Counted from the first letter of the stretch, positions 8,216-60,299 are shown. The stretch is 64,000 bases of DNA from Candidatus Moraniibacteriota bacterium (GCA_023133275.1 JAGLWU010000002.1:2440-66439), one strand, 5' to 3'. Notes: generated by a model not told the origin, from the sequence alone. Made by a program: numbers and translations.

Positions 8216-8290
8216 AAGTCCCCAATCATATCACTTTAAAAAGCTTTCATCAAACTAAAAATTTAAAAATAATAATTCAAAAAAGTACTT

Positions 8291-9277: not shown

Positions 9278-9343
9278 GATTTTATTATATCATTTAATTT
9301 ACAAAATTTACACATTATTTTTTAAATAGAATAAAATATCATA

Positions 9344-9946: not shown

Positions 9947-9963
9947 TTGTTTAATTCTTCACA

Positions 9964-9998
9964 ATCGTAGAAACGTTGCAATGCAACGTTTCTACGAT
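9964..9998. repeat. REP hairpin 1 (GTAGAAACGTTGCA / TGCAACGTTTCTAC), directly adjacent to the RAYT gene
   Basis: Perfect palindrome beginning with GTAG. Same family as the hairpins at 35988, 37367 and elsewhere. Confidence 0.75.
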
Positions 9999-10024
9999 AT
10001 GATAATTTTTACTTTTAAATTTTA

Positions 10025-10966
10025 TTATTTTCCAATTGGAAATTTATCTGTAATTATGTTACCCGTAAAACTTCCATTGTCTGTATCATTAAAATGATTA
10101 GAATTAACAGGTGTTGTAATTAAATCAACAACTTTAGAAATTAAATGATTCTTTAATCCTTCATCTGTTTTTTCTTTTAATAAATAATTTTCTAAAATTT
10201 TTGCATTTAATTGCAAATGTCTGTATCTTGAAAGTAGATCTGCATAAATACGATAATTCTTTTGAGCAAAATAATATTGAGAATAAAGTAAACCAAAAAA
10301 TGCCAATTTAAAAAGTGCTAAAGCATATAGTTCATTTCTATCTATTTCTTTACAAAAATATAAAATAAAATATGACAAAAAAATAATAATTGAAAATATA
10401 ATAAGCAAACCAAAAATATTATTTCTTTTATCCATCCAATATTTTGCTGATTCTTCATTATTATTATCAGTACCTAATTCACTGACTCTATCTGAAATTT
10501 GTTTTTCAATAACATTACTTGTTTTACCATCGATAACATTTTCAACATTTTTTAATGCATTATTTAATTTTTCTATTTGATTATCTACTGCAATTTTATC
10601 TTCTTTTAATTTTTCTATTGAATTATTTTTTGTCTCCTCAGTTTCAAAATTTTTTAAAACAAAATCATTTCTTAAAAATAAATCTATAGTAAAATCTCTT
10701 ACTTCAATTACAGACTGTTTTAAATTATTTATATATTGAGCAGCAAAAGAATTTGGATCTTGTTCTACTTGTTTTATACCTTGAGAAACTTTCATAAACT
10801 TTTTATTCAATTCAAGTTCCTCAACCTCATCAGCAACACCAAGAAAATCAATTAAATTAAAAAATTTATTACATTTATCTATTTCTTTTGTATACTGATA
10901 TATAATTTTTCCATTAATTTTATAAGTATTTAATTTATTAATAAATTCTTCTTTTTTTATATTCAT
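10025..10966 (-). CDS. hypothetical coiled-coil / two-TM membrane protein
   Basis: 313-aa ORF with a long coiled-coil region followed by two hydrophobic helices (LLIIFSIIIFLSYFILYF; LYALALFKLAFFGLLY). No motif recognised. Confidence 0.5.
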   Translation of the reverse strand: MNIKKEEFINKLNTYKINGKIIYQYTKEIDKCNKFFNLIDFLGVADEVEELELNKKFMKVSQGIKQVEQDPNSFAAQYINNLKQSVIEVRDFTIDLFLRNDFVLKNFETEETKNNSIEKLKEDKIAVDNQIEKLNNALKNVENVIDGKTSNVIEKQISDRVSELGTDNNNEESAKYWMDKRNNIFGLLIIFSIIIFLSYFILYFCKEIDRNELYALALFKLAFFGLLYSQYYFAQKNYRIYADLLSRYRHLQLNAKILENYLLKEKTDEGLKNHLISKVVDLITTPVNSNHFNDTDNGSFTGNIITDKFPIGK

Positions 10967-11026
10967 AATATTAAAATTTTAATTTCACTAAAAAGAAACA
11001 TACCCAAAAGAACGCCTCTCACAAAA

Positions 11027-14055: not shown

Positions 14056-14275
14056 TTAACCGCAAGAAACTTTTCAATCCATACAAAATTTATGCAAACC
14101 CTTAGATTTGTCATTCCGGAAAATATATTTTCTTTCCGTAGTAGGGCTCAAGCATGCCTGAGCCCTACTACTACAAGAAAACAATTTATTCAGAATCTAT
14201 ACTTTAAATTTAAAGAAAACTCAAAGTACACTTTTTTCTGAAATCCTGAATAAATTATCTTTCCACTTCGTTACA
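14056..14275. repeat. composite repeat: GTGC-hairpin module plus a TGTCATTCCGGAAAATA long hairpin element with REP hairpin 2 nested in its loop
   Basis: gtcattccggaaaatatattttctttcc ... GTAGTAGGGCTCAagcatgccTGAGCCCTACTAC ... caatttattcagaatc; then ttctgaaatcctgaataaat. Confidence 0.7.
14138..14171. repeat. REP hairpin 2 (GTAGTAGGGCTCA...TGAGCCCTACTAC)
   Basis: Perfect 13-bp arms, GTAG head, inserted into the loop of a TGTCATTCCGG hairpin element. Confidence 0.7.
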
Positions 14276-14326
14276 AAATAATTTTTTAGGATTACAGTTT
14301 TTTTAATTTTCTAACTATCTACAAAT

Positions 14327-17001: not shown

Positions 17002-18915
17002 CTATTTATCTTCACTCTTTTCTTCCTCACCAAAATACCATTTATAAACATCATACGCCACTGGCACAGTCGAAGAAGAAATCCTATCCGTCTGATCCTC
17101 CACCATCACCACCAAAGCAATCTCTGGATCATCATAAGGAGCATAAGACACAAACCAAGAATGTACCCTATCATTCCCCCTTTTACCAAATTGAGCAGTA
17201 CCAGTTTTACCCGCAACTTCCACAGACAAATCTTTTAACATTGTCGCAGTCCCATCACTAATTGCTTGTCTCATTCCTTCTTGAGCAACTTTAATATCTG
17301 TTTTACTCGCAATATCATTTTTTAAAATAACTGGTTCAAATTTCTGCTCATTTTCTTCCACATCAATAATATGAGAAACAATTTGCGGTTTATATAAAAT
17401 CCCTCCGTTCGCAATAACTGAAATCGAATTAAGAACCTGCAGAGGCGTGGCTGTAATATAACCTTGACCAATCGATGAATTATAAGTATCTCCTAAATAC
17501 CATTTTTCATTAATTTTATTTTTTTTCCATTCTTTATCAGGATAAACACCAGCTACTTCACCAAATAAATCAATTCCTGTTTTTTTACCATAACCAAACT
17601 GTTGCATATATTTTTTCATTTTTTCGATACCTAAACCTTGAATATCTGGATAATTTTCATGTCCACCACAGGCAGTATAAAAATAAACATCACTAGAAAC
17701 TGCAATCGCTCGTCGCATATCAGTAAATCCATGAACTTTCCAATCTCCAAAAAAAGAATTTCCTACTTTTATACCTCCCTTACTTTCAATTTCATAATCA
17801 GGTGAAATAATTTTTTCCTGTAATATTGCCAAAGCCTCCACTGGTTTCACTGTTGATCCAGGTGGATAAGCTCCACTGATAGATCGATTAAAAAGAGGAT
17901 TATTTTTATTACTGATCAAAGAATTATATTCAGACGCTTCAATTCCTCGGGCGAAAAGATTATTATCATACGACGGCAAACTAACCATCGCTAAAATTGC
18001 TCCAGTTTTTGGATTCATAGCTATAGCTGTGGCTTTTTGTGTATCAGCTCTTTCTAATTGTTTTTCTAAACTTTCTATAATAACTTTTTGCAATTCTGAA
18101 TCAATATTTAAGTAAACGTTTGAACCTTTTTTAGCTGGAATATCACTTAATTTTCGTACTAATTCCCCTCGACTATTTACCATTGACTGAGTTGATCCGT
18201 GCCCCCCTCTTAAAGATTTTTCATAATAAGTTTCAATACCTGTTTTTCCAATCCGATCAGTTAATAAATAATCCACTTCATTTTCCCATTCTTCTTTTTG
18301 AATTAAGCCTTCATAACCAATAATGTGTGAAAATAAAATTCCATCTGAATACTCTCGTAACGCTGTATTTTGAATAGCAATTCCTGACACATCCTGACCC
18401 AAACCTGAAATAATTAGAGATTCCTCATGAGAAATATTTTCTGCAAGAATGAGAGATTTTTCAGTTTCATCAGATAAATTAATTTTGACTAAAGTTTGGT
18501 CATACTCAAGAGAAGTTTTTTCACTTAATATTTTAGCAATTTCTTCTCTCTGAGAATTTTCACTAGGCAAATTTTCTGGAATAATAATAACGCTTTGATT
18601 AGGTACATTTTTAGCTAAAACTTTTCCATTTTTATCAAAAATCTCACCACGAGCAGCAATAATAGGAACTGAACGAACACTTTGACCTCCAGCAATTTCA
18701 GAGTAATAATCACCCTGAACAATAGTTAAATAAAAAACTCTCCCCGCTAAAAAAAACAAAGTCAAACAACTTATTGCCCACAAAAAATTAAACCATTTAC
18801 TATCAGATTTAAAAACTTGTTTATTTTCACTTTTGCTAAATTTATCAATAATAGGATCATCGATCTCCACCATTGAACGTTTAATTTTATCTCTCATAAA
18901 AAATTTATTTATCAA
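17002..18915 (-). CDS. mrdA: penicillin-binding protein 2 (peptidoglycan transpeptidase)
   Basis: N-terminal TM, dimerisation domain, transpeptidase motifs STVKP, SSD-like and KTGTAQ. Synteny with mreCD. Confidence 0.9.
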   Translation of the reverse strand: MINKFFMRDKIKRSMVEIDDPIIDKFSKSENKQVFKSDSKWFNFLWAISCLTLFFLAGRVFYLTIVQGDYYSEIAGGQSVRSVPIIAARGEIFDKNGKVLAKNVPNQSVIIIPENLPSENSQREEIAKILSEKTSLEYDQTLVKINLSDETEKSLILAENISHEESLIISGLGQDVSGIAIQNTALREYSDGILFSHIIGYEGLIQKEEWENEVDYLLTDRIGKTGIETYYEKSLRGGHGSTQSMVNSRGELVRKLSDIPAKKGSNVYLNIDSELQKVIIESLEKQLERADTQKATAIAMNPKTGAILAMVSLPSYDNNLFARGIEASEYNSLISNKNNPLFNRSISGAYPPGSTVKPVEALAILQEKIISPDYEIESKGGIKVGNSFFGDWKVHGFTDMRRAIAVSSDVYFYTACGGHENYPDIQGLGIEKMKKYMQQFGYGKKTGIDLFGEVAGVYPDKEWKKNKINEKWYLGDTYNSSIGQGYITATPLQVLNSISVIANGGILYKPQIVSHIIDVEENEQKFEPVILKNDIASKTDIKVAQEGMRQAISDGTATMLKDLSVEVAGKTGTAQFGKRGNDRVHSWFVSYAPYDDPEIALVVMVEDQTDRISSSTVPVAYDVYKWYFGEEEKSEDK

Positions 18916-18954
18916 ATTATCAATATATCAGTTGTAACTTAAATTTTAATTTGT

Positions 18955-19002
18955 GAATCTAAATATCTACAAGTCTAATTGTCTAAAAGTCTAATTCTCT
19001 AA
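18955..19002. repeat. array of six units with TCTA phased every 8 bp (gaaTCTAa ataTCTAc aagTCTAa ttgTCTAa aagTCTAa ttcTCTAa)
   Basis: Read directly. An inverted partner array lies at 19527-19554, so mreD is bracketed by the two. Confidence 0.65.
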
Positions 19003-19511
19003 AGATGTCTTTTTACATCGATTTTCTGAGTATAAAAAGAAATAACTTTTTCCGAGCGACTAATTAATTTGGAAAAAATAAAAAAATAAAAAACACTTAT
19101 TAAAATATAAAAGAAAATTTGTCGTCCTAAAAATAAATAATTTATTTCATTTCTTTCAAAAAAATAATTAGCAACAACTACGGCGGTCGTTAAAAAACTA
19201 ACTCCAATATACGCCAAAAAAATCCTTTTTCCAGAAACTTCAAAAATGGAATAGTTTATAAAATTGAAAATTATTACAGTAGAAAAAATAACTAAAAAAT
19301 ATATTCCAATATGAGAGGATGCTAAAAAATCATAAATTAAGGCAAAAATACTTATTTCCCAAAAAACTTCCTCAAAAGATTTTACAAACACCCAAGAACA
19401 TCCGAAAATAATTGGCAATATTAAAGGAATGGATAAAATTGCCGAGGCAAAACCTATGCAAATAATTAAGAAAAAAATTATAATTAAAAATCTAACAAAA
19501 AAATTTAACAT
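18999..19511 (-). CDS. mreD: rod shape-determining protein MreD (by synteny and topology)
   Basis: 170-aa polytopic membrane protein encoded between mreC and mrdA. Confidence 0.55.
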   Translation of the reverse strand: MLNFFVRFLIIIFFLIICIGFASAILSIPLILPIIFGCSWVFVKSFEEVFWEISIFALIYDFLASSHIGIYFLVIFSTVIIFNFINYSIFEVSGKRIFLAYIGVSFLTTAVVVANYFFERNEINYLFLGRQIFFYILISVFYFFIFSKLISRSEKVISFYTQKIDVKRHL

Positions 19512-26232: not shown

Positions 26233-26405
26233 GTGCTCGCCGCACGGGCTTTTCACCATTTCTCATTCATATCATTCCGGAAAATATATTTTCTTTCATA
26301 GTGCAACGATGAAATAGAAAATAATTTATCCGGAATCTTTACTCTAAGTTCAAATAAAACCTAAAGCAAAACTTTCTTCCGAGATCCTGAATAAATTTTT
26401 TTAAG
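26233..26405. repeat. composite repeat: GTGCTCGCCGCACGGGCTTTT module plus a TCATTCCGGAAAATA long hairpin element ending in AAGATGACA
   Basis: A stem of about 26 bp (attccggaaaatatattttctttcat / atgaaatagaaaataatttatccggaat), then cttccgagatcctgaataaat. Confidence 0.7.
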
Positions 26406-26435
26406 ATGACACACTAACTAGTTACGAATTACCGA

Positions 26436-28370: not shown

Positions 28371-28672
28371 AACAAGGGGTCATGACCCCTTGTTCAATTT
28401 CTAAAATTTTCCTGTCATTCTGAACGAAGTAATTTTTTGTAAAAAAAATTACGTAGTGAAGAATCCCCCACAGAAAATTAGAAAACTTCTATTTTTCAAG
28501 ATTTTAAACCCCTACAAAATTGTACAAATTCCCAAACATGTCATTCCGGAAAATAATTTTGGAGTGAAACGAAGAAATTATTTATCCGGAATCTATAAAT
28601 TAAGTTTAAAGAAAATTTAAAGCATAATATTCTTCCGAGATCCTGAATAAATCATTTCATTTTTCAAGATGA
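28371..28672. repeat. composite repeat region: 20-bp palindrome CAAGGGGTCATGACCCCTTG plus TGTCATTCTGAACG module plus TGTCATTCCGGAAAATA hairpin element
   Basis: Modules shared with 8079-8215, 14056-14275, 26233-26405, 36026-36158 and 50530-50790. Confidence 0.7.
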
Positions 28673-28676
28673 CAAA

Positions 28677-43396: not shown

Positions 43397-43418
43397 ACTG
43401 ATACCTAATATCATCAGA

Positions 43419-45266
43419 CTAACGTTGAACACCATCTAATCCAACTTCCTGTTCCAATTCCTCCTGCTCTTTCATTTTTTCCAATTGTCGAGGATCGGAA
43501 GTGATAACTTTATCCTCACTGTAAGAACTAATAATTTTAATCGCGGCATGTTTTGGTCCTGCAAAAAGAATACCCTCTCCTACTCCACTTTCCAAAAGAA
43601 GAAATTTCTCATGATCTGTTAAATAAAAAGTATCCGCAATTACATCCACTGAAGCTGGAGATTGTCGAAGAAGTAATTGGAGCGATGAGTTTGTAACAAT
43701 TGGTTTGCCATAGCGACTCGACATAAAATCACTTACATCCTGTGTAATTGTCGTTAATCCTGTGTAATATTTACGACAACGTTTCGCAATGCTAAACATA
43801 AAAGAAGCTGCGTCTTCGCTCTGCATCATCACCCATGCCTCATCCACTACCACCATTCTCTGAGTCATATTGGAACGCATCTCATTCCAAATAAATTGCA
43901 AAATAATATACATCGCAATCGGTCGCAATTCGTCTTCCAAATCTCTAATGTTAAAAACTACCATTTGATTTTTGATTTCAACATTTGTTGGTCTATTTAA
44001 AAATCCAGAAAAAATTCCCTCGGTATATTTAGCTAATCTTTTTGCCAAAGAATCGCCACCTTCCATATTAACTAAAACATCGTAGAGATCAGACATGGTT
44101 GGATAGCCAGAATGTGGAATAGATCCAAAATTGCTATTTTCATTAATGTCACGTACTGCATAACTTTCTCGAATCGCCCGTTCTAAAACGGTGTCCTCCT
44201 CGGCTGTTACAGAACCTAACATTAAATGCAAAAGTCCAATTAAACCTGCTATCGTATTTCGAAAAACGTCTTGTGGTCTTTCATCGGCAGGAATTGGAGG
44301 TAATTCAAATGGATTTATACAAGCCTTTGAACCTAAAGAAATTCTGATATAACTTCCTGCCACAGTTTGACATAAATGTTTATATTCATTTTCAGGATCA
44401 ATTACAATTACATTTGTTCCAAACATCATTGATCGCAAAATTTCTAATTTAACAAAATAAGATTTACCTGCTCCTGATTTAGCAAAAATTACCATGTTGG
44501 CATTTTCCATGTTAAAACGGTCGAATAAAATTAAACTATTATTATGTCGATTAATTCCGTAAAGAATACCTTCGTTTGAAGATAAATTTGATGAAACGAA
44601 TGGAAAGGTAGTTGAAAGTGGTGCGGTATTTAAATTATTGCCATTATTTAATTTATCTTCACAAAGTGGGATACTGGAAATAAAACCTTGATCCATCCGC
44701 AAAGTAGCTGGTTTAGTGTAAATCATCTGAGCCTCTAAAATTGCAGTAACTTCATTTTTATTTTTTCGTAATTCTTCTTCGTTTTCACCGTAAAAAGTGA
44801 TGTATAAACCAAAGCGGAAAAACCGTTCAGTTCCCTGTTGTAATTGAGTTCTCAAAGTTTCCACATTTTCTAAGGCAGTTTCTAACATTGGGTCGCGAAT
44901 TTTTCCTGCTTCAGCCTCGATGTGCATTTGTGATTGAACGTGAGTTGAGGTTTTTTTCAAATTTTTTAAAACATTGCGAGTGTCTGCTGGATGGATAAAC
45001 ATTGATACGTCCATTGGAAAATCGATGTTGACAATGGGAGAAAACCAGTTATCATTTAAATATCGGGGATATGCCATGACGAATAGAGTGGTTGAAAGTA
45101 CATCGCCAATTTGAATTTTGCTAGCTGAAATTTCTAAAGCACTGGGTGCAATGAGTCCTCTAACGGTGGCTACTCCTTTTTGATAGAATTTTTCACGTTC
45201 TAAGATTTCTTCTGGAGTATCTACAACTATTTGTTCTTGTTTTTTGTTTTTTTTATTGAATAACAT
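43419..45266 (-). CDS. VirB4/TrbE/CagE-family type IV secretion ATPase
   Basis: N-terminal VirB4 region IAPSALEISASKIQIGDVLSTTLFVMAYPRY, Walker A FAKSGAGKSYFV, Walker B MVVVDEAW. Confidence 0.85.
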   Translation of the reverse strand: MLFNKKNKKQEQIVVDTPEEILEREKFYQKGVATVRGLIAPSALEISASKIQIGDVLSTTLFVMAYPRYLNDNWFSPIVNIDFPMDVSMFIHPADTRNVLKNLKKTSTHVQSQMHIEAEAGKIRDPMLETALENVETLRTQLQQGTERFFRFGLYITFYGENEEELRKNKNEVTAILEAQMIYTKPATLRMDQGFISSIPLCEDKLNNGNNLNTAPLSTTFPFVSSNLSSNEGILYGINRHNNSLILFDRFNMENANMVIFAKSGAGKSYFVKLEILRSMMFGTNVIVIDPENEYKHLCQTVAGSYIRISLGSKACINPFELPPIPADERPQDVFRNTIAGLIGLLHLMLGSVTAEEDTVLERAIRESYAVRDINENSNFGSIPHSGYPTMSDLYDVLVNMEGGDSLAKRLAKYTEGIFSGFLNRPTNVEIKNQMVVFNIRDLEDELRPIAMYIILQFIWNEMRSNMTQRMVVVDEAWVMMQSEDAASFMFSIAKRCRKYYTGLTTITQDVSDFMSSRYGKPIVTNSSLQLLLRQSPASVDVIADTFYLTDHEKFLLLESGVGEGILFAGPKHAAIKIISSYSEDKVITSDPRQLEKMKEQEELEQEVGLDGVQR

Positions 45267-45341
45267 TTTTTGTTTTGTAATTAGCGACTGATAAATTAGT
45301 AGCTAGAATTATTGATTATGAATTTATTTTGTATTTTTAAA

Positions 45342-45764
45342 TTACCATTTTATTTTTCTTCGCAACGGATCAGTTATTTTTAAAACTATTAAACTAAACA
45401 TATATAAAAATAACCAAACTTTGAAAAAATATATAATAAAATCAATAATAAAAATTTTTTCAGAATTTAAAATATCTACAAATATAATAGAAAATAATAA
45501 ATATATTGGAATTAATACTAGAACGGAACAAATAAAAATATTATATTTATCCTTTTTAACCTTATTATAAATAAATGCTACTAGGCTAGCAGGTAAAGCA
45601 AAAAATAAAAATTCTAACAAATAAATATCGTGATTATCTGGGGGACACACCCTTAATTGACAATTATACAAAAAAATTAGAAAAATAAATAGTATAGATA
45701 TAATATTCAAACTTAAAAAATATATTATTTTTTCTTTTGTGATTTTCATAAATTTAATTTTCAT
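45342..45764 (-). CDS. small 4-TM membrane protein (possible VirB3-like T4SS component)
   Basis: 140 aa, hydrophobic. Located immediately upstream of virB4. Confidence 0.4.
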   Translation of the reverse strand: MKIKFMKITKEKIIYFLSLNIISILFIFLIFLYNCQLRVCPPDNHDIYLLEFLFFALPASLVAFIYNKVKKDKYNIFICSVLVLIPIYLLFSIIFVDILNSEKIFIIDFIIYFFKVWLFLYMFSLIVLKITDPLRRKIKW

Positions 45765-45801
45765 TGAACAATAGATTATGACCCATTGTTTATAAATAAT
45801 T

Positions 45802-46485
45802 CTACAATCTAACTAATTCAGTCTTTTCAATATTCTTAATCGCTGACTGAGCAAAAACAGACGGATTATACGCATTGTAAAACAATTCAATCAATTCATC
45901 AGTATTCAAAGTCGTAAAATTTAAACCCGTTCCCCCCAACGCCGCCGCAATATGATCAACTCTCTGATAAAGCTGATTTTTATAAGTCTCAAATAATTCC
46001 TTACGCTCAGTTACAACCTGAGAAGGATTCAACAATGACGACATTTTATTCAAAAAACCACCAGTCGTACTCTCAATCGGAGAAAAAGGCACCACAATAT
46101 AAAAATATTTACTCATGATATTAGTAACCTCAGTAAGATGTTGCACGAATGCACGATATTCTGCTGTCTGAATTTTTAACAATTCATTACGTTGTTTTTT
46201 TTCACTTTCTTTTAAACTCTCTAAATATGGTCTAATATTTAATTTCCGAGAACTAATTACGATTTGAATAGGAAAATCTAAAGAATTGAGAAAATTTTGA
46301 TACGCCCCCACAATAGCCACTTGCTCATCAGAAGCTTTCAAATCAAAATTAATTGACGACACTAATAAAACCGATCTCAACGATCCATTTTTTAACACAA
46401 CAACTCCATCTTTAATTGTTTGAATATCAACATATTTTAAAGTGCTGATATTTTGATTTTCTTTTTGTTTTTTCTTTTTCGCCAT
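45802..46485 (-). CDS. hypothetical soluble protein in the T4SS-like cluster
   Basis: 227 aa with no TM. The N-terminus IKDGVVVLKNGSLRSVLLVSS resembles the beta-rich N-domains of conjugation proteins; weak evidence. Confidence 0.45.
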   Translation of the reverse strand: MAKKKKQKENQNISTLKYVDIQTIKDGVVVLKNGSLRSVLLVSSINFDLKASDEQVAIVGAYQNFLNSLDFPIQIVISSRKLNIRPYLESLKESEKKQRNELLKIQTAEYRAFVQHLTEVTNIMSKYFYIVVPFSPIESTTGGFLNKMSSLLNPSQVVTERKELFETYKNQLYQRVDHIAAALGGTGLNFTTLNTDELIELFYNAYNPSVFAQSAIKNIEKTELVRL

Positions 46486-46607
46486 TTTATTTTTGATAAG
46501 TTAGTAACTGGTAATCAGTAACTAGAAATTAATTGTAAATTGCTATTCTAAATAAATACTTTTTTAAGTTCTAAATTGTAAATTTCTATTTTAAAACGTA
46601 GTAATAT

Positions 46608-46650
46608 TTCTACAAATCTAATGGTCTAAAAATCTATCCTCGATAATCTG
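46608..46650. repeat. TCTA 8-bp phased array; its inverted partner lies at 47447-47478
   Basis: tttctacaaatctaatggtctaaaaatctatcc versus reverse complement atattctacaaatctaatggtctaaaaat. Confidence 0.6.
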
Positions 46651-47086
46651 TTCTTTTTTTAAGGATTTCTTCTAATTTATTATTGCCATTAACACCTCTG
46701 GTATCAAGAGTGTGGGCTAATATGGAAATATCATCTGTATCTAACGGTTTTTTATTGTAAACCACTTGATTCATTTCTATCGGTTCAATTTTTTTCTGTT
46801 TTTTTATTTCGGGATCTCTTTGCCAAGTGTAGGCACGTGGTTTAAATATGTAAAGAATGGCAAATCCAACAAATTGAATTAGAGGTAATCCCTGCGGTTT
46901 GTAAAAAGCGAATGAAACAACAATGATAGTAATTGGAATTGCAACGGTATAAAAAGCGGATTCGTCCAATAGTTTCCAAAGAATTACTAAAATTGTTCCG
47001 CCCGCAAAAAACCAGCCTAATTGTTTCCAAGTTAGTGGTCCAACTATTTTATCTTCAATATCGACATACTGTGGTACTACTTTCAT
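46634..47086 (-). CDS. PrgI-family (VirB3-like) small membrane protein of Gram-positive-type T4SS
   Basis: VPQYVDIEDKIVGPLTWKQLGWFFAGG is the PrgI signature N-terminus; two TM helices. Confidence 0.6.
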   Translation of the reverse strand: MKVVPQYVDIEDKIVGPLTWKQLGWFFAGGTILVILWKLLDESAFYTVAIPITIIVVSFAFYKPQGLPLIQFVGFAILYIFKPRAYTWQRDPEIKKQKKIEPIEMNQVVYNKKPLDTDDISILAHTLDTRGVNGNNKLEEILKKRTDYRG

Positions 47087-47263
47087 TTTTTTGTTTTTGG
47101 ATAAATTAAATTTACAAAAATAATATTTCTAATTTACTTCTTTATTATAACACTTTTTCCTTTTTTGAGAATAGCGTAGCGATAAGTAAAAATAATTTAA
47201 ATAAGTTGTTAAAATTAATAGTTGTTTTTTGTCTTATCGTGATGTATTTATTTCAAGGAAACA

Positions 47264-47294: not shown

Positions 47295-47303
47295 ATTTCC
47301 TTG

Positions 47304-47375
47304 TCGGGGTACAGAGACTCGAACTCTGACTAAATCCTCCCAAAGGACTCGTGCTAGCCATTACACTATACCCCG
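47304..47375 (-). tRNA. tRNA-Pro (anticodon TGG)
   Basis: Reverse complement CGGGGTATAGTGTAATGGCTAGCACGAGTCCTTTGGGAGGATTTAGTCAGAGTTCGAGTCTCTGTACCCCGA. C1-G72 pair typical of bacterial tRNA-Pro. Anticodon loop TTTGGGA. Confidence 0.85.
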
Positions 47376-50529: not shown

Positions 50530-50790
50530 CATTATGTCATCCTGAAAAATTATTTCATTTTTTGTAAAAAAATTAAAAAATTTATTCAGGATCTCAGAAG
50601 AACATCATACTTTAAATTTTCTTAAAACTTAAGGTGTAGATACTGAATAGATTAATTTGTATTCAATCGCTACGCTCTTGAACAAATTATATCTTCCAGC
50701 ATGACATATCTGGGAGTTTGTACAGTTTTGCAGGAGTAAAAAATCTTTAATTAAATTTTCAACCCAAAAAGCCCGTGCGGCGAGTACTTT
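50530..50790. repeat. composite repeat: TGTCATCCTGAAAAATTATTT hairpin element with an inverted end (TTCCAGCATGACAT) plus an inverted GCCCGTGCGGCGAG module
   Basis: atgtcatcctgaaaaattatttcattttttgtaaaaaaattaaaaaatttattcaggatc forms an 18-bp hairpin. Confidence 0.65.
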
Positions 50791-53928: not shown

Positions 53929-53956
53929 GTAGGGAACGCAGATCTGCGTTCCCTAC
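53929..53956. repeat. REP hairpin 5 (GTAGGGAACGCAGA / TCTGCGTTCCCTAC, perfect 14-bp arms)
   Basis: Between the ftsH stop and tRNA-Val. Confidence 0.7.
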
Positions 53957-53961
53957 GAAAT

Positions 53962-54035
53962 GCGCGTGTAGCTCAGTTGGTTAGAGTGCTTGCTCGACAC
54001 GCAAGAGGTCTCAGGTTCGAATCCCGACACGCGCA
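53962..54035 (+). tRNA. tRNA-Val (anticodon GAC)
   Basis: GCGCGTG acceptor paired with CACGCGC, D-arm TAGCTCAGTTGGTTAGAGT, anticodon stem CTTGC/GCAAG with loop TCGACAC (C at position 33 is unusual), T-arm TCAGG/TTCGAAT/CCCGA. Confidence 0.75.
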
Positions 54036-54041
54036 CAAATA

Positions 54042-54076
54042 AAAGTAGGGACTAGTCATTGGCTAGCCCCTACTTT
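54042..54076. repeat. REP hairpin 6 (AAAGTAGGGACTAG tcattgg CTAGCCCCTACTTT)
   Basis: GTAG-headed palindrome directly after tRNA-Val. Confidence 0.65.
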
Positions 54077-54090
54077 AATATTAAAATATT

Positions 54091-55254
54091 TTACCGATTT
54101 CCTTTCGCTCGATTGTGAGTTTTACATAACATCTGACAATTTTCAACTGAAGTAGCTCCATTTTTACTCCAAGCTGTAACATGATCAGCATCCATTTCTG
54201 TCAACTTCCAAATTTTATTCTTATTAGCGTCATGTCCAATAGCACAATGTGAACAATTTGATTTATTTTCATTTTTGGCTATTTCTGTTTGTTTTGCATA
54301 AACTAATTTTTTAGTCGCTTCATCAAAAATTCGAACATTTAGCAATTTTGTGTCAACTGAACCACCAAGAATATATTCAAAAATACCTTTACGATTTTTA
54401 ATATACGGATCAGCATAAAGTTTATGTACTTCCGCAGAAACTTTAGCTGGATCATAAGATTTTTTGTGATATTCCTCATACAATCGCCCCCATTCCAATC
54501 CACGCATTTCGCTTTCAACATCTTCAAACACGCCTGAAACCCAATCGATCACACTGTTAAAATAAGTTTTTAATTCATTGATAGTATCATCGTTACGGTG
54601 GCTACTCATATAATCTCCAATATTATTTTCACTAACCCAATCTAAAGCTTGTTCTAAAAATTCTTGTCGGTTGGCACTTCCTTTTATGTAAGCATTCCAT
54701 TTTTGAATATTAGCATTTTGACTATTACTAAATTCTTCTTTGGCGAGAGTTACAAATTGTCCGGAATAAACAGCGTTTAATAATTCTTGATTATTTAAAG
54801 GAACTCCAGCAATATTAATTGTTTTAAACCATTCTTTGATTTCACTTTCACTTCCCTCGCATTGATAAATTAAAAGCTCAGTTTCTAAAATCTTTTTTTG
54901 TTTATCTTCGGCGATTCCGCTGAAATATTGTTCCATACCGTTTTCGTCTTTGATGGCGAATTTATTGGATACGAATCGTCCGATACTAGTAATGCGTTGT
55001 TGTCCATCTAAGACTTCTAAATTGTCATCATCAATTTTATTGAAGTAAATTAATCCTAGTGGATAGCCTTTTAAAATTGATTCGATTACGGCTACATCTT
55101 TTTTACCATCAGCATAAATGTAGTTTCGTTGGTATTCTGGTTGGATAGTTAGTTTTCCTGATAGTCCAAATAATCCTTTGCCTTCGAGTTCGTTATAGAT
55201 AAATCCTTCGCAGATGTCTTTTATGGTGATGTTAGTTTTTAGGGTTGTTTTCAT
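54091..55254 (-). CDS. DUF262 (ParB-like, DGQQR) plus HNH nuclease; GmrSD-like putative type IV restriction/defence enzyme
   Basis: [16 protein letters not shown]262 signature. C-terminal HNH: CSHCA...[12 protein letters not shown]...[10 protein letters not shown]. Confidence 0.7.
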
Positions 55255-55500
55255 TATATTTGTAAAAATTGATTAAAGTTTTTCTTTTTATCTTAAACTA
55301 TGCACTAATTTTATGATATTTTGTGTATAATTGCAAACCTTTGCACAATTTTTTAGTTTTTTTGTACATAGTTTCGGGTCTTTGCACCATTGTGGTGCAG
55401 ACTTGTAATTTTATAGCATCAAATTTGCAAGTATTTTTATTTATAGTTGCAAAAAACGCTAAATTTGTAAGTATAGAAAATTATAGTCTCAAATTTGCAA

Positions 55501-55580
55501 CTATTATTTCTTATAGTCTCTAAAATTACATTATTAGAGACTATTATTCCTTATAGTCTCTAAAATTACATTATTATTTT
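55501..55580. repeat. two tandem 40-bp direct repeats (CTATTATTYCTTATAGTCTCTAAAATTACATTATTA); the second overlaps the Fic gene stop
   Basis: Read directly. A third TTATAGTCTC copy is at 55481. Confidence 0.7.
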
Positions 55581-56645
55581 TATAAGATCATCAAAAAAAT
55601 AGGTTTTATTTTTATTTTTACCGTTATCAGAAATTATTTTTTTATCCTTTAAAAATTTTAAAATTTTAAAAGTATTTGATTTGGGTATTTTAGTTTTAAC
55701 TATGAAGTCCCTTGAATCAAAAAGAGGCATTGAAAAAAGAAAGTCTAAAACTTTAAAATTATTTTTAGGTGTTGGAATATCTACTATTTTATCTTTCAAG
55801 TCGTCATGTAATTTTAAAATTTCTTGTACTTTATTGATATTTTTTATTGACTGTTTTTCTGTTGCAATAAGAAAAAACTTTATCCAGTTTTCCCAATCAT
55901 TATTTTTAGAAATATCTTGTAATCTTTCATAATATTCATCTCTGTGAGTTTCGAAGTACTCACTTAAATAAAACATTGGAGAATGTAGAACTTTTTTATA
56001 GTACAAAAATAGTGGCATTAAAATTCTTCCCGTCCTTCCATTTCCATCCCAAAAAGGATGAATAATTTCAAATTGTGCATGTACTATTGCTAATTGCACT
56101 AAAAAATCTTTTTCATCAAAATGAATATATTTTTCAAATTCTGAAAAGTATTTTTCTATTTCTTGAGGTTCAGGTGGAATATGACTTGCACCTTCAATGC
56201 CCAATCCTTGTTTACCGATAAAAACAGATCCCGTTCTAAATTTTCCAGGTTCTTTTCCGTCTCCTCTTGCTCCTTGTAAAAGTATTTTGTGAATTTTTTT
56301 GATAAGCCTTGTGGAAAGTGGTAATTCATCTAATTTTTCAATTGCCATATTCATGGCTTTTCTGTAATTGATAATTTCTTGAATGTCTTCGTATTTTTCT
56401 GTCTTCTTTTTTGGATTAGCTTCAAATTCTAAAACTTCTTCTAGCGTTGCTTGAGTTCCTTCAATTTTTGAGGATAAAACAGCTTCTTTTGTGGAAAGTG
56501 GGGAAAGTAAAATTTTGGCATTTGGAATGCTTTGTAAAAATCCATCAAATTTTGCTACGGCACGATTTGCTCCTCCAATGTGTTGAACGAAGTCTTCCCA
56601 GTTTAGTTTTTCTAATGGTAGTTTGTGTGGCTTAAATGATTTCAT
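55566..56645 (-). CDS. Fic family protein (Fic_N plus Fic plus C-terminal winged-helix-like tail)
   Basis: SKIEGTQATLEE (Fic_N), HPFWDGNGRTGRILMPLFL (Fic motif). Confidence 0.8.
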   Translation of the reverse strand: MKSFKPHKLPLEKLNWEDFVQHIGGANRAVAKFDGFLQSIPNAKILLSPLSTKEAVLSSKIEGTQATLEEVLEFEANPKKKTEKYEDIQEIINYRKAMNMAIEKLDELPLSTRLIKKIHKILLQGARGDGKEPGKFRTGSVFIGKQGLGIEGASHIPPEPQEIEKYFSEFEKYIHFDEKDFLVQLAIVHAQFEIIHPFWDGNGRTGRILMPLFLYYKKVLHSPMFYLSEYFETHRDEYYERLQDISKNNDWENWIKFFLIATEKQSIKNINKVQEILKLHDDLKDKIVDIPTPKNNFKVLDFLFSMPLFDSRDFIVKTKIPKSNTFKILKFLKDKKIISDNGKNKNKTYFFDDLIKIIM

Positions 56646-56709
56646 GTATTTTAATTATTTATTTAAAAATTTATACTTTGAAACGATTATTTTTATTATA
56701 AAGGAATTT

Positions 56710-56800
56710 TGTCATCCTGAAAAATTATTTTGTAGTTTGCCTTTGTCGGCAGACAGGCGTAGCGGAGAAATTATTTATTTGGGATCTGGGATGAACGCAA
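56710..56800. repeat. TGTCATCCTGAAAAATTATTT hairpin element with REP hairpin 8 nested in its loop
   Basis: gtcatcctgaaaaattatttt GTAG tttGCCTTTGTCGGCAGACAGGC GTAGcgg agaaattatttatttgggatc. Confidence 0.6.
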
Positions 56801-56827
56801 AACTTTAATTTTAAAATAGCTTATAAA

Positions 56828-57457
56828 CTAATTTTTATTTAAAACAATCTTTCCTCTAGTTTTTCTATTTTCATCATTTCCATAGAATCCAGTAATAACA
56901 CTTTCTTTATCTTCGTTAAAAAATAAAACGGCAAAACCATTATGTTCCACAAAACCAGTCGGAATCATTTTTGGATCTTCAGGATTATTTTTATAATGAT
57001 AACCTATCATCCAATTTTTCTTATTATTCTTATCTTGCTTCAAAAAACTAAACGTACTTTCAAATCCTGACTTATCAAAATCACCAGAAAAACTAAAACC
57101 ATTAATAATTTTTTTAATGACAATATCTTTTCCAATCACTTTAGTTTCATACTCTTCCGTATCCCAATTAAATTTATAGGAACTCCAACATTTCATTGTC
57201 CAACTTCCATCAATTTTAGGATATTCTTGAAAACCTAATTGAATAAATATTTTCTTAAAAACCCAATATTTCCATAAATACTTTTCATATAAAATATGAA
57301 GCCCATAAACTATTAAAAAAATAATACTTGATACTATACCATATTTCCAAATATTATATTTAGGATCTATCAAGATGATCTTTTCATTCAAATAATATAA
57401 TACAAAAGTTAAAATTATTATTAATATAATTGCTTTTTTTAAATTTAATTTAGCCAT
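56828..57457 (-). CDS. 2TM plus beta-rich domain protein, Cap15-like candidate CBASS effector
   Basis: Two N-terminal TM helices (AIILIIILTFVLYYL; YGIVSSIIFLIVYGLHIL), then a 150-aa beta-strand-rich soluble domain. The stop lies 12 bp before the nucleotidyltransferase gene on the same strand. Confidence 0.5.
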   Translation of the reverse strand: MAKLNLKKAIILIIILTFVLYYLNEKIILIDPKYNIWKYGIVSSIIFLIVYGLHILYEKYLWKYWVFKKIFIQLGFQEYPKIDGSWTMKCWSSYKFNWDTEEYETKVIGKDIVIKKIINGFSFSGDFDKSGFESTFSFLKQDKNNKKNWMIGYHYKNNPEDPKMIPTGFVEHNGFAVLFFNEDKESVITGFYGNDENRKTRGKIVLNKN

Positions 57458-57469
57458 CGTTGTTATTTT

Positions 57470-58387
57470 TTAATCATTACAAAAATCAGCAATCGCAATT
57501 ATAAATTTATAAGTATTCTCTAAATCCCACATTTTATCAGAAAATAGCATATCTTGACCATTAGCACATTCATAATTTTTTATATTTTCATTTTTTATAT
57601 CATTTGACCAATTTCGAATTATTTTAATAAGCATATCTTGATAGCTTCCATTAAAAATTTCAATTGGAGAATTATAAACTAAATTTTCAACAAAGTATGA
57701 CGGTGCTGAATCTTTCTCTATCTTCATATCTTGCAAAAGTTTTTTCTTCATATTTTTAAAAATACGAACAACAGATTTAAATTTTCCGTTTGTTCTGTCA
57801 TTTAAAGAACTACAATTTTTTAAATGCTCTTTTGGATAATTAATAATAACTTCTCTTGTTCCAGAATTAAATAACTTAATTCCAGGAATATAACTTTTAT
57901 TATTTAAGGAAATAAATCTTTCATATTTTTTATGTTTAAAAGCAGGCACAACATCAGCATTAACTCTATAAGTATTAGCTGGAACTTTTAAACTCTTATT
58001 ATCAAATTTAATTGAGGTGTCAAAATACATTTCAAGCACTTCATGTACATCTTTTTTAAATTTATGGAAATCATACTCAGAGCTATCATAGGAAATTTTA
58101 AAAACTTCTTTTTCTATTTCACTTAAATGATTTATATCGTAAGAAAAAGATTTCTCTAATTGAATAACAACATCAACATCGCTATCAACTTTTATATTAG
58201 TGCTATTCGCATAAGAGCCCTGTAAATATATTTCACAATCAGAAGATTCTATTGAATAATTATGGTTTTTAGAAACTACATGAGAAATATATTTATCTAA
58301 AGCCTCTCTAATTTGTTTGTGTGTATGTATATATCTTGTCGCAACAGGTACATTTGCCCAAGTGCTTAATTGTTGTTCTGTAATCAT
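57470..58387 (-). CDS. cGAS/DncV-like nucleotidyltransferase (CD-NTase/OAS-fold), candidate CBASS cyclase
   Basis: GS-x11-DVD (IYLQGSYANSTNIKVDSDVDVVI), third acidic strand NADVVPAF, OAS/cGAS-type helix SAPSYFVENLVYN. 305 aa. Confidence 0.65.
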   Translation of the reverse strand: MITEQQLSTWANVPVATRYIHTHKQIREALDKYISHVVSKNHNYSIESSDCEIYLQGSYANSTNIKVDSDVDVVIQLEKSFSYDINHLSEIEKEVFKISYDSSEYDFHKFKKDVHEVLEMYFDTSIKFDNKSLKVPANTYRVNADVVPAFKHKKYERFISLNNKSYIPGIKLFNSGTREVIINYPKEHLKNCSSLNDRTNGKFKSVVRIFKNMKKKLLQDMKIEKDSAPSYFVENLVYNSPIEIFNGSYQDMLIKIIRNWSNDIKNENIKNYECANGQDMLFSDKMWDLENTYKFIIAIADFCND

Positions 58388-58405
58388 ATTTTTAAAATTA
58401 AAAAA

Positions 58406-59458
58406 TTATTTTCCCCTATGTTTAATAAAAATTCTCTTAAAAGTTTCTTTACCATTTAAATATAAGCCTTTTCCAAAAATTCCGTTCGGATCTTGATCTA
58501 CTCCTCGATTTGATCCAATTAATTCAAACTGCTCAGGAGAATATTTATTAAGAAAACTAATCGGCACACCCATCACCCCATCAAAATCACTCGGAATATT
58601 TTTCACTAATGAAACCTCTATTGCATTATAATTATCATATTTTTCAAAGGGTTTTTTTGTTACAAACTTCATTATTTCTGATTCAGTCATTAACGATAAA
58701 GGTTGATGACGTTTACCATGATCAATATTAGTAAACCAGATTGTTCCAGCAACAAACGCATATTTATTCCCATCTTCTTCTTTGTGAAAATTTTCATAAC
58801 TATCAGGAACTTGATACCATACATTTCGTCCATCATTTTTTCCAGCACCAATCCACATTTTATTTTCCTTAATCAATGGAAAAACCTCCTTATAAGTAAT
58901 CGCATTCATATTCCCAATAATCACAAACAACTTCCCCGCCTCCACAATCCACCCCAAAAAATCCCGAAACAACGAAAACGGCGGATTCGTAATAATTACA
59001 TCAGCCTCATCCCGCAACACCTTAATCTCATCACTCCCAAAATCACCATCCCCCTTCAAATAACTCCATTCCAAATCATCAACATCCACTTTACCATCGC
59101 CCGTCTTATCATGCATCAAAGTAAAAATCTTCCCATGCTTTTCAGTCTTACTTTCATCAAACTGCGGATCATCCGTTTCAAAAAGAGTCGGTTGATAATT
59201 ATTTTTACAATTCTTACTTTCCGTTGCATAACTAGTACTAATCAATTTTTTCAAACCAAACCTCTCAAAATTTTGAGCAAAAAACTTAGTAAAATTACTC
59301 CATTCCGGATCATCACACGGCAATAAAATAGTCTTATTTCGAAAAACATCAGGATTATACTCAATATAAGCGTTAATTTCTTTTTCAATATCATGATACT
59401 GAGTATAAAACTCATCATTCTTTGCTTTCTTTGCATTTGTGAGATTGCTATTTGCCAT
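58406..59458 (-). CDS. N6-adenine DNA methyltransferase, M.EcoRI-family-like (NPPF)
   Basis: N-terminal KNDEFYTQYHDIEKEI, SAM region ILLPCDDPEWS, catalytic DVIITNPPFSLF. An 18-bp gap to the nucleotidyltransferase gene suggests co-transcription. Confidence 0.55.
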   Translation of the reverse strand: MANSNLTNAKKAKNDEFYTQYHDIEKEINAYIEYNPDVFRNKTILLPCDDPEWSNFTKFFAQNFERFGLKKLISTSYATESKNCKNNYQPTLFETDDPQFDESKTEKHGKIFTLMHDKTGDGKVDVDDLEWSYLKGDGDFGSDEIKVLRDEADVIITNPPFSLFRDFLGWIVEAGKLFVIIGNMNAITYKEVFPLIKENKMWIGAGKNDGRNVWYQVPDSYENFHKEEDGNKYAFVAGTIWFTNIDHGKRHQPLSLMTESEIMKFVTKKPFEKYDNYNAIEVSLVKNIPSDFDGVMGVPISFLNKYSPEQFELIGSNRGVDQDPNGIFGKGLYLNGKETFKRIFIKHRGK

Positions 59459-60080
59459 ATTTATGAATTACACGATTAAATTACATTTTTACTTTTAAAA
59501 ATATTCATTAATATTAAACATAAAAATACAATTTTGTCAAATAAAAACTGTTTACTATAAAAATAAATTTACATTAATCCATTATGTAATATAGCATAAA
59601 ATGTCTATTAAAGCAATAGTAAAAGTAGTAATTCCTTACGTTTATCTTCTTGAAAAAAACCATTCTTTTTCAAAATAAATTTTAAAAAAATCAGAAAAAA
59701 TATTTATTTGGTGCTATATTAGGTATGTTATATTTAAAATAATGCAAATGTGTCGTTAAAATCCGATACTAATTAATTTTTAGCATATTCCCCGCTGTGG
59801 ACATAAAATAATCTCTAAAATATATAAGTTGCAATGAAAATAAAATAAATACTTTTGTAGCAATTTTAAATCAAAAAGATGGCATAACAGTTTATTCATA
59901 TTAAGTCAATCCTTTAATTTACCAAAATCCACAATTTATAAATATCTGGATTTCATATTGATAAAAACAGTTTTTTCAAGGTTTTTGTTAATTTTGTTGA
60001 ATTAAGGTTGAAAAAGAATATTTGGATAAATATTTCATTATCTGAAAAAAAGATAATTTGATTTAAAGGAAAATAAGTTT

Positions 60081-60299
60081 ATGGGACATCTTAATCCTAA
60101 AAAATCTTTACGAGAAATTAGAATTTTACCAAAAAATATTGATTTTACGATGGGTTATGGTATTTATGGTAATGAAGTAGCTTTTATTCCATCACAAAGG
60201 GAAAATTATGATTAGGTGATTGATAGTAAAGAATTGGGTGAAACGATGAAGAATCATTTTGATTATTTCTGGGGAATTTCTAAAAAGTATATAAAATAA
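60081..60299 (+). pseudogene. small ORF interrupted by an in-frame TAG (60213-60215); likely gene remnant
   Basis: MGHLNPKKSLREIRILPKNIDFTMGYGIYGNEVAFIPSQRENYD, then TAG, then VIDSKELGETMKNHFDYFWGISKKYIK in the same frame. Confidence 0.2.

Follow-up and report, generated by a model that had tools for sequence, protein, structure and literature searches.

CBASS and Fic genes lie between the two halves of a probable restriction-modification operon in a Candidatus Moranbacteria genome

Introduction

Five defence genes stand in a row behind a tRNA-Val gene in a bacterium of the Candidatus Moraniibacteriota. Did they arrive together as an island at the tRNA, or do they form a unit of another kind? 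We addressed this question in a stretch of 64,000 nucleotides (nt), hereafter the window (GCA_023133275.1 JAGLWU010000002.1:2440-66439), which has a GC content of ~29% and belongs to a contig of a Candidatus Moranbacteria (Patescibacteria) metagenome-assembled genome (MAG). Counted from the tRNA, the genes encode a DUF262-HNH nuclease, a Fic protein, a membrane effector of Cap15 type, a CD-NTase and a DNA methyltransferase. An original prediction, made from this sequence, had described them as an acquired accessory locus anchored on the tRNA. Our analysis indicates that the locus is probably one Type II restriction-modification (R-M) operon, the two genes of which are separated by embedded defence cargo in a recurrently used slot; here the cargo is a cyclic-oligonucleotide-based antiphage signalling system (CBASS) of CdnE-Cap15 type and a SoFic-like Fic gene.

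Results

The nuclease and the methyltransferase are two halves of one operon

The block holds five open reading frames (ORFs), all on the minus strand between 54091 and 59458, with no other genes inside it. Their positions agreed exactly with the original prediction, and on inspection of the sequences the catalytic motifs of all five products are unbroken. The tRNA-Val gene proposed just before the block was placed there by both ARAGORN and Rfam, and the first defence gene begins 55 nt past it (Table 1).

The gene nearest to the tRNA encodes the nuclease, hereafter R. It matched the Pfam families GmrSD_N (3.4e-21) and HNH (2.8e-6) and, over its full length, the PADLOC model REase_II (5.9e-89). 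R contains a DGQQR motif and a D-H...N...H HNH motif with CxxC pairs. Residues H358, C334 and D83-G84-R87 were invariant in 62 diverse homologues, among which the DGQQR and HNH motifs as a whole were invariant or nearly so. An AlphaFold2 model of R, computed with these 62 homologues in the alignment, had a predicted local distance difference test score of 91.8. The gene farthest from the tRNA encodes the methyltransferase, hereafter M, which contains an NPPF motif. A site that resembles a promoter precedes it and, judging from its fit to the consensus, would act as the promoter of M.

The arrangement of the two genes elsewhere was surveyed in a locus sample consisting of the best 80 metagenome matches and 33 IMG/VR viral matches, which is not a census; several genome and plasmid loci were also fetched. 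The distance from the M stop to the R start was tallied for 109 loci that have an EcoRI-family methyltransferase upstream on the same strand. These comprised metagenome loci, IMG/VR viral loci and one genome, L005, a Moraniibacteriota MAG that is the closest genome in the species-level collection (its FtsH is 90% identical in amino-acid sequence to that of the window). The two genes overlap in 34 loci (mostly at −4) and are 0–30 nt apart in 50, so that 84 of the 109 have them overlapping or at most 30 nt apart; the distance is 31–500 nt in 4 loci and 619–3536 nt in 21. Two plasmid records from cultured bacteria, one a 9-kb plasmid of Moraxella osloensis and the other a megaplasmid of Enterococcus faecium, also have M immediately upstream of R, and M-R pairs occur in different phyla, on viral contigs and on plasmids. 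The window has the two genes co-oriented and 3,151 nt apart. Because M is directly upstream of R in most sampled loci, the island is bounded by the first and the last gene of one operon. Nuclease and methylase are thus two halves of an M-R operon that is normally contiguous and translationally coupled, and M followed by R with overlapping stop and start is the ancestral and usual state in this R-M family.

The R family is very large, with at least 8,000 database proteins at E ≤ 1e-10, and unusually uniform: the top 120 matches, from Patescibacteria, Kazan, Anaerolineales and Spirochaetota, are 81–89% identical. At E ≤ 1e-30 the superfamily comprises 471 clusters (50% identity level) and reaches ~36% identity. 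Pairwise identity among 89 R sequences had a median of 82% and a minimum of 74%, with zero indels, against a median of 63% and a minimum of 44% for their M partners. R was more conserved than M in 98% of pairs, and the divergences of the two proteins were correlated (Spearman rho 0.48). Between the window and L005, R is conserved to the same degree as FtsH, and a restriction enzyme that evolves as slowly as FtsH is unusual. A hypervariable target-recognition segment was considered as the source of the faster divergence of M and was rejected: the unevenness along M is moderate, with residues 201–250 and 301–350 lowest and no clear swapped domain.

The N-terminal domain of R is of the ParB/GmrSD nucleoside triphosphate (NTP)-binding type, and because its DGQQR motif is invariant, R is suggested to be NTP-dependent like GmrSD, BrxU and SspE. 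Classical Type IIP enzymes have no NTP requirement. R is Type II by gene organisation and may not be a classical Type IIP enzyme. Foldseek returned no whole-protein structural counterpart in the PDB (best E = 0.02), only weak domain-level matches to the ParB CTPase fold, BrxU and HNH nickases or the Gme HNH nuclease; no PDB sequence matched, and a literature search on DUF262-HNH Type II enzymes found nothing specific.

The embedded genes encode a CBASS pair and a Fic protein

Directly behind M, 18 nt after its stop codon, begins the CD-NTase gene, whose product has the active-site GS, DxD and D elements (QGSY, DSDVDV and NADV). The Cap15 gene follows 12 nt after the cyclase stop; its product matched Pfam Cap15_CD_rec (6.4e-11) and the PADLOC 2TM effector model (3.7e-19). 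No Cap2/Cap3 or HORMA/TRIP13 domain was found among the five genes. From their domains and order, the CdnE-like cyclase and Cap15 are predicted to constitute a two-gene type I CBASS. The cyclase gene is likewise followed by Cap15 in the loci of two CdnE relatives that are 47–53% identical (P0123 and P0131); one of these pairs follows a complete R-M gene set and the other adjoins a DNA methylase gene.

In L172 (653-5360), a CdnE-Cap15 pair with a 53% identical cyclase belongs to a co-oriented string of RadC/C5-methylase, HpaII-type endonuclease, Vsr, CdnE and Cap15 genes. There the CBASS is attached downstream of an R-M operon and is not embedded in it.

The third embedded gene encodes a Fic protein that matched the PADLOC SoFic model over residues 2–358 of 359. 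It contains the motif HPFWDGNGRTGR, of the HxFx(D/E)GNGRxxR type, and an N-terminal inhibitory SSKIEG motif. With the NCBIfam SoFic model it scored 179 bits, under the equivalog cut-off of 550, and it is therefore a SoFic homologue, not an equivalog. A small antitoxin gene like AS1 of EcSofic was sought downstream of it: the sole minus-strand candidate (55298-55390, 30 amino acids (aa)) loses its start codon in L005 and was rejected, and no conserved small gene was found in the spacer between R and Fic.

The junction between M and R is a probable recurrent cargo slot

About 19% of the sampled loci, the 21 of the tally, are split by a long gap, and the window is a further case. In the long-gap loci whose content was examined (13 from metagenomes, and L005), the major cargo ORFs, which were called mechanically, share the orientation of M and R. 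Most of the 13 metagenome loci have the cargo packed 0–30 nt from the M stop and the R start. RhuM (PDC-S05) is the cargo in four loci and Fic in two. Other loci carry a NucC-like DUF6602 nuclease with DUF6680 and T5orf172 (PDC-S57), a reverse transcriptase (RT) of DRT type with two partner genes, an AAA_13-like PDC-S46 ATPase with DUF2130, a trypsin-like PDC-S45 protein, an OLD/AriA-like ATPase-TOPRIM protein, an AIPR/AbiU protein or small membrane proteins; a prophage clade has Bro-N (PDC-S13) as cargo and a tyrosine integrase following R. The cargo matches PDC and known defence models, and the RhuM, Fic, Bro-N, PDC-S46 plus DUF2130, PDC-S45, OLD/AriA-like, AbiU/AIPR, DRT-type RT and T5orf172 families had already been flagged as defence or embedded candidates.

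Split loci are dispersed across the R tree, mostly with unsplit loci as their closest neighbours: the R of the split locus L104, for one, is 95.9% identical to that of the unsplit L094. Since split loci are scattered among unsplit ones, insertion or loss must have happened many times.

The combination of an AAA_13-type ATPase (PDC-S46) and DUF2130 was seen in two positions, downstream of R in L171 (339-6138) and between M and R in L141 (1222-7037). DUF2130, for which there is no PADLOC model, also stands beside Bro-N in L005 and may be an unrecognised defence partner.

Close relatives keep the outer genes and differ in the interior

The window has two close relatives in the collection, L005 and L170, and the L170 contig stops 91 nt upstream of R. 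L005 aligns with the window through cmk, tilS, ftsH, tRNA-Val and R up to position 55434 (83% nucleotide identity). The alignment resumes at 58373 and runs through M (77%), which in L005 is an orthologue in the same position with 70% amino-acid identity. Between these points, L005 has a 70-aa ORF, DUF2130 and Bro-N in place of CdnE, Cap15 and Fic. In L170, where R is 89% identical, the order is tRNA-Val, a 63-aa ORF, an M23 peptidase gene and R, and the DNA directly before R is homologous to the 5' flank of Fic in the window, including the end of a MITE-like (miniature inverted-repeat transposable element-like) repeat. R is beside ftsH and tRNA-Val in both relatives; M is visible in L005 only. 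R is thus retained in the lineage, as is M where this can be checked (L005), and the interior of the operon is the part that is exchanged. Comparison with related genomes, which the original prediction had proposed as a check, hence divides its accessory locus in two: SoFic, Cap15 and the CD-NTase are accessory and absent from L005, whereas R, and M in L005, are conserved in the lineage.

The surrounding interval also varies. On the right-hand side of M, the window has lost the M23 peptidase gene that both L005 and L170 possess. It carries a decayed TrmB-like gene there where L005 has an intact TrmB-family gene (18534-19304), and synteny with L005 picks up again at nrdD. The TrmB-like pseudogene represents gene loss in a variable region that extends from tRNA-Val, its left landmark, to nrdD.

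Table 1 Features of the locus, in window coordinates
Feature	Coordinates	Strand	Basis
GTAG...CTAC-closed hairpin, perfect 12-bp stem, 5 nt upstream of tRNA-Val	53929..53956	+	
tRNA-Val(GAC)	53962..54036	+	ARAGORN; Rfam tRNA 64.6 bits; kept in L005 and L170
Bidirectional terminator-like hairpin, GTAGGG head, 14 pairs, A/T-run flanks	54042..54076	.	Terminator scan
R, nuclease half of R-M operon, 387 aa: DUF262 (ParB/GmrSD_N-like NTP-binding), helical middle, C-terminal HNH	54091..55254	-	
R-proximal control region	55299..55434	-	83% identity to L005 over 136 nt; no match in other loci
Array of degenerate 30-40-nt repeats (AAATTTGCAA[G/C]TAT ... TATAGTCTC)	55421..55576	.	Repeat search; Tandem Repeats Finder score 147
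SoFic-like Fic protein, Fic_N and Fic (cargo 2)	55566..56645	-	PADLOC SoFic 1.4e-115
MITE-like repeat copy between Cap15 and Fic	56710..56795	+	Family alignment
Predicted Cap15-type CBASS effector, two N-terminal transmembrane helices and cyclic-dinucleotide receptor barrel (cargo 1b)	56828..57457	-	
CD-NTase, clade E-like (cargo 1a)	57470..58387	-	PADLOC cyclase 3.6e-85; nearest PDB entry CdnE 6e0k, 2.9e-43
M, EcoRI-family N6-adenine DNA methyltransferase, first gene of R-M operon	58406..59458	-	Pfam EcoRI_methylase 2.8e-120; PADLOC MTase_II 9.2e-92
Promoter-like site, TTGACA / 18-nt spacer / TAATAT, ~50 nt upstream of M start	59511..59540	-	Consensus scan, 10/12
Decayed TrmB-like regulator gene (pseudogene), right flank	59797..60299	+	tblastn with intact L005 protein: fragments with stop codons, middle missing

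Flanking hairpins, the R-Fic spacer and MITE-like repeats

Both GTAG-headed hairpins reported on either side of the tRNA are present. The upstream one has counterparts in L005 (~11897-11924) and L170 (~2505-2535, minus strand) that keep the GTAG and CTAC ends, while the inner stem of 8–9 bp is wholly different yet fully compensated in the three genomes. By this pattern the hairpin appears to be a structure under selection that belongs to the conserved ftsH-tRNA backbone and does not mark the island as had been proposed. Lying between ftsH and the tRNA, it may signal RNA processing or termination. The second hairpin sits between the convergent tRNA-Val and R genes, where L005 and L170 have a different A/T-flanked hairpin.

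Repetitive extragenic palindromic (REP) elements are GTAG-headed palindromes that are mobilised by RAYT transposases and occur in many near-identical copies per genome. The label REP, given to the two hairpins in the original prediction, fits their GTAG head and CTAC foot but not their number or stems: GTAG-headed hairpins occur four times in the 64 kb (at 53929, 54045, 14141 and 9967), with unrelated stems. Positional conservation in three species with compensated stems suggests that the hairpin before the tRNA has a structural role and is not a mobile repeat.

The 311-nt spacer between R and Fic (55255-55565) had been described as a TTGCA-rich region with a palindrome and a 40-nt tandem repeat, and this is real and non-random: TTGCA occurs 6 times against 0.39 expected (P = 4e-6), and TTGCAA 4 times against 0.18. 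The minus-strand RNA of 55255-55570 folds with z = −6.3. The control region shared with L005 contains a promoter-like site detected by a promoter scan (−35 TTGCAA at 55336-55331, 17-nt spacer, −10 TAAAAT at 55313-55308). It also contains an inverted repeat, TGCACCA-TTG-TGGTGCA, at 55383-55399; the L005 version, TGCACTG-TTG-TAGTGCA, has one pair compensated and one that is now G-T. This region would supply the promoter and operator that R needs once it is uncoupled from M.

Next to it lies the repeat array, which has no counterpart in L005 save its first 14 nt (55421-55434), inside the conserved stretch. A 40-nt tandem repeat (55500-55576; 1.9 copies, 97%) runs over the Fic stop codon, and older copies of 30–40 nt extend from 55421. 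TATAGTCTC occurs in 3 copies in the array and nowhere else in the window (0.27 expected). The distal repeats resemble junction scars or a 3' flank of the Fic cassette. Of the spacer, which the earlier view had taken whole as the upstream region of the nuclease gene, only the proximal part is conserved with L005, and the tandem repeat, overlapping the Fic stop, equally forms a 3' flank of Fic.

A shared recombination motif at the cargo junctions was sought and rejected: the region upstream of R matches L005 only, and both AAATTTGCAA[G/C]TAT and TATAGTCTC are confined to 55421-55560.

The MITE-like family consists of 60–95-nt elements at six to seven places in the window, with the ends TGTCATCCTGAAAAATTATTT and AATTTATTCAGGATCTCAGAA and a variable middle that can hold a GTAG-headed hairpin. 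Copies lie at 14110-14201, 14238-14296 (minus strand), 26379-26411 (minus strand), 28539-28674, 50535-50597 and 56710-56795. The left end of the last, together with an adjacent TATAAT, forms a promoter-like site (56723-56695) that faces Fic. In the relatives, copies are found just upstream of M in L005 (17158-17221) and just upstream of R in L170 (8-48). The window copy at 50535-50598 is 98% identical to an L005 copy at another place, compared with only ~80% for orthologous genes, which suggests that the family has been mobile recently or is strongly constrained. These features suggest separate arrivals of the CBASS and Fic cassettes, with MITE-like repeats that populate the slot or help to rearrange it.

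Other features of the window

Between the TrmB-like pseudogene and nrdD are four copies of an 18-bp perfect palindrome with the core TTCCACGTGGAA (60331, 60370, 60411 and 60551), three of them in the full form TTGTTCCACGTGGAACAA (60328, 60408 and 60548). The corresponding interval of L005 also has four palindromes of the TTCCACGTGGAA type. They have the appearance of operators, possibly those of the TrmB-like regulator whose gene has decayed in the window, and to our knowledge they do not resemble NrdR boxes. An Rfam scan of the island and the whole window passed only tRNAs; microRNA matches on the TTCCACGTGGAA palindromes were far under threshold.

A cluster resembling type IV secretion or conjugation genes (~43400-47100; PrgI-like, TraC-like and a 615-aa DUF87/TraG-type ATPase) abuts tRNA-Pro (47303-47375, minus strand). 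L005 has this tRNA-Pro without matching DNA upstream of it, and the site may be a second variable region at a tRNA.

A model of the operon and observations that weigh against it

The following model builds on the identities of the genes and their unbroken motifs, the contiguity of M and R elsewhere, the recurrence of co-oriented embedding and the replacement of cargo between close relatives; in it we infer activity, specificity, transcription units and the mechanism of swapping. The operon lies between tRNA-Val and nrdD in this Moranbacteria lineage, and the space between M and R would serve as a cargo slot. M would be transcribed first, from the promoter-like site ~50 nt upstream, and host DNA would become methylated; read-through from M would then express CdnE and Cap15 across gaps of 18 and 12 nt. 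R, with its own conserved promoter-like region, would cut unmethylated incoming DNA, possibly at GAATTC. Phages that escape restriction would meet abortive-infection modules: the cyclic nucleotide made by the cyclase would cause Cap15 to permeabilise the membrane, and Fic, behind its own promoter-like flank, would AMPylate a host target. Cargo between M and R would be co-oriented and co-transcribed, and would share the fate of any functional R-M pair, a widely mobile module, when that pair is transferred or retained; the conserved M and R genes could serve as homology arms for swapping the middle.

GAATTC was considered as a target because it shows the strongest palindrome avoidance in the window, with 3 occurrences against 21 (Markov) or 33 (dinucleotide) expected. 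The ratio of observed to expected counts was 0.65, a modest signal, for hosts carrying an M of at least 60% identity, 0.93 in those with a divergent M and 0.83 in controls. GAATTC is possibly a target of R, and we treat it only as a candidate.

CATATG (1 against 7.5 expected), GATATC (2 against 9.5) and AGGCCT (0) are also strongly avoided in the window, which hints at further restriction systems in the genome.

Several observations weigh against the reading of the locus as an R-M operon with a recurrent cargo slot. Over 856 kb of other host loci GAATTC is not depleted family-wide (observed/expected 0.88, against 0.83 in controls), and we dropped it as a target of the whole family; because of this, the specificity of R is putative, as is even the assumption that it is a classical sequence-specific enzyme. 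Seven of the 21 split loci belong to one prophage clade. L171 carries its cargo downstream of R, not between M and R. No recombination site or recombinase that would explain the exchange of cargo was found. In L085, another Moraniibacteriota locus (7891-11170), an R that is 85% identical has no M within 10 kb upstream, where an AAA_21 ATPase, a DDE transposase and an ORF of 190 aa are found instead; a solitary R of this kind would be expected to be toxic, unless it lacks activity or its M is encoded at another place.

Alternative explanations

A further reading extends the embedding to the whole family, and we regard it as possible, though on balance doubtful. By this account, the pair of an M.EcoRI-family methylase and a DUF262-HNH nuclease is a widespread, horizontally mobile carrier R-M whose M-R junction is a dedicated slot, where abortive-infection genes are repeatedly gained or swapped, probably by recombination using the R and M arms. 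R itself would possibly be an NTP-dependent, ParB-like HNH enzyme that reads N6-methyladenine (m6A) status, as SspE reads phosphorothioate. The stronger conservation of R relative to its M partners would be explained if R reads m6A status and not sequence.

Guard coupling, in which CBASS and/or Fic would be held inactive by M or R and triggered when a phage anti-restriction protein disables R-M, is unlikely in our judgement. It has a precedent in prrC, which lies inside the Type Ic EcoprrI locus and is activated when EcoprrI is inhibited (PMC12707154). In its favour, embedding recurs in about a fifth of the sampled loci, where the major cargo ORFs share the orientation of M and R and most are tightly packed, and the unusual constraint on R would fit additional protein-protein interfaces. 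However, the cargo comes from more than 10 unrelated families, which is hard to square with one specific interface. CdnE-Cap15 (PMC10686824) and SoFic (PMC12249575) are stand-alone systems elsewhere, and Fic and R here have promoter-like flanks of their own.

We consider it quite unlikely that the locus is a classical tRNA-targeted island, in which a site-specific integrase inserted the whole 54.0–59.5 kb block at the tRNA-Val 3' end, as a phage, an integrative and conjugative element or another integrative remnant. The short distance from the tRNA to the block is consistent with such an event. On IMG/VR viral contigs, moreover, a tyrosine integrase comes after a related M-BroN-R module, and in a Kazan genome M has a serine recombinase gene as its immediate neighbour. 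The interval between tRNA-Val and nrdD also varies from the window to L005 and L170. The anchored integration implied by the original prediction was nevertheless not borne out. No integrase gene, domain or remnant was found between 54037 and 61322. The last 14–25 nt of the tRNA, with mismatches allowed, have no second copy in the 64 kb. There is no compositional anomaly either: the five genes have a GC content of 0.24–0.33, a third-position GC content of 0.15–0.28 and a codon distance of 0.19–0.25, within the range of the window (means 0.297 ± 0.046, 0.207 ± 0.049 and 0.224 ± 0.054, respectively). Finally, R is common to both relatives and M to L005; because only the interior differs among relatives, the unit of exchange is the interior and not the whole block.

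That an orphan methyltransferase and a solitary Type IV-like, modification-dependent DUF262-HNH nuclease are chance neighbours in a shared defence island is very improbable: the studied DUF262 nucleases GmrSD and BrxU are modification-dependent (PMC12707154), the Joint Genome Institute annotates R homologues as McrA-like and the R of L085 has no nearby M, but M stands directly upstream on the same strand in 84 of the 109 loci, across phyla, viral contigs and plasmids, R and M diverge in a correlated manner, and a modification-dependent nuclease translationally coupled to a methylase would presumably be self-toxic.

Discussion

The reading of the locus as a split R-M operon with embedded cargo changes how it would be annotated. 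The output of automated tools would list a CBASS, a SoFic, an orphan methylase and a lone 'Type II REase', whereas the last two are one split operon. The nesting of defence genes thereby reaches a simple two-gene Type II operon, which widens the search space for new defence genes. The operon is abundant in uncultivated Patescibacteria and also occurs on viral contigs and on plasmids of cultured bacteria (Enterococcus faecium megaplasmids and the 9-kb Moraxella plasmid), which offer tractable hosts; cultured carriers are E. faecium BN83 (pBN83-1) and Moraxella osloensis (pSKB0120-6). The locus is furthermore an example of a CBASS in a reduced-genome bacterium of the Patescibacteria (candidate phyla radiation).

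If the M-R junction is indeed a carrier slot across the family, guilt-by-embedding would apply to two-gene Type II operons. New defence candidates would then include the 195–212-aa membrane proteins (L105, L152, L147 and L163), DUF2130, DUF6680 and the 220- and 239-aa RT partners, and R may be a new mechanistic type of nuclease.

Each component of the locus can be set against a known system. M is in the same Pfam family as the methylase of the EcoRI system, and GAATTC is the most avoided palindrome in the window. In contrast to that system, the nuclease is unrelated, being of DUF262-HNH type, the gene order is M then R and the avoidance of GAATTC is not general to the family. R.EcoRI has a PD-(D/E)XK fold.

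R resembles GmrSD, BrxU and SspE in architecture, and shares with them an N-terminal DUF262 domain with DGQQR and a C-terminal His-Me finger nuclease. Its nuclease domain is a classical HNH (PF01844) with no DUF1524 match, and at 387 aa it is much shorter. It is coupled to an m6A methyltransferase and does not act alone on modified DNA. Foldseek gave E = 0.02-0.05 for ParB-CDP, E = 0.05 with a probability of 0.44 for BrxU (7p9k) and E = 3.1, which is chance level, for SspE (7drr). Like SspE, R is paired with a host modification module (PMC12707154).

The embedded CBASS resembles Ssc-CdnE03-Cap15 of S. schleiferi, a type I-B system that senses phage RNA (cabRNA) and disrupts the membrane, and whose operon is flanked by a Type I R-M system (PMC10686824). 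Both have a clade-E cyclase followed by a Cap15 with two transmembrane helices and a barrel, both lack Cap2/Cap3 and HORMA genes, and both adjoin R-M genes. They differ in that none of the homologues of the window cyclase in the collection searched exceeds 55% identity and in that the pair here begins 18 nt behind the methyltransferase gene, inside the R-M operon. SoFic, the Fic-type AMPylase of Shewanella oneidensis, is a single-gene anti-phage system (PMC12249575). The window Fic is like it in its full-length PADLOC match and in its Fic and inhibitory motifs, and differs by its NCBIfam score (179 against 550 bits) and by having no AS1-like gene behind it.

All of the components, and embedding in other hosts, are known; what is new is the two-gene Type II host, the share of sampled loci that are split and the turnover of cargo between sister genomes. 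A limited literature search found no report of embedding in a Type II R-M pair, which is not proof of novelty. The survey of embedded defence genes by Payne et al. covered Hma, BREX, DISARM and Type I R-M only, found 96.7% co-orientation and supplied the hosts from which the PDC models derive (10.1101/2024.01.29.577857). Our locus and sample agree with that survey in that additional defence genes are nested in the same orientation in a multi-gene immune system, and the cargo families (PDC-S04/05/13/45/46/57, OLD-like, AbiU and DRT) are those recovered there. The difference lies in the host, here an M-R operon of Type II style that consists of just two, normally overlapping, genes.

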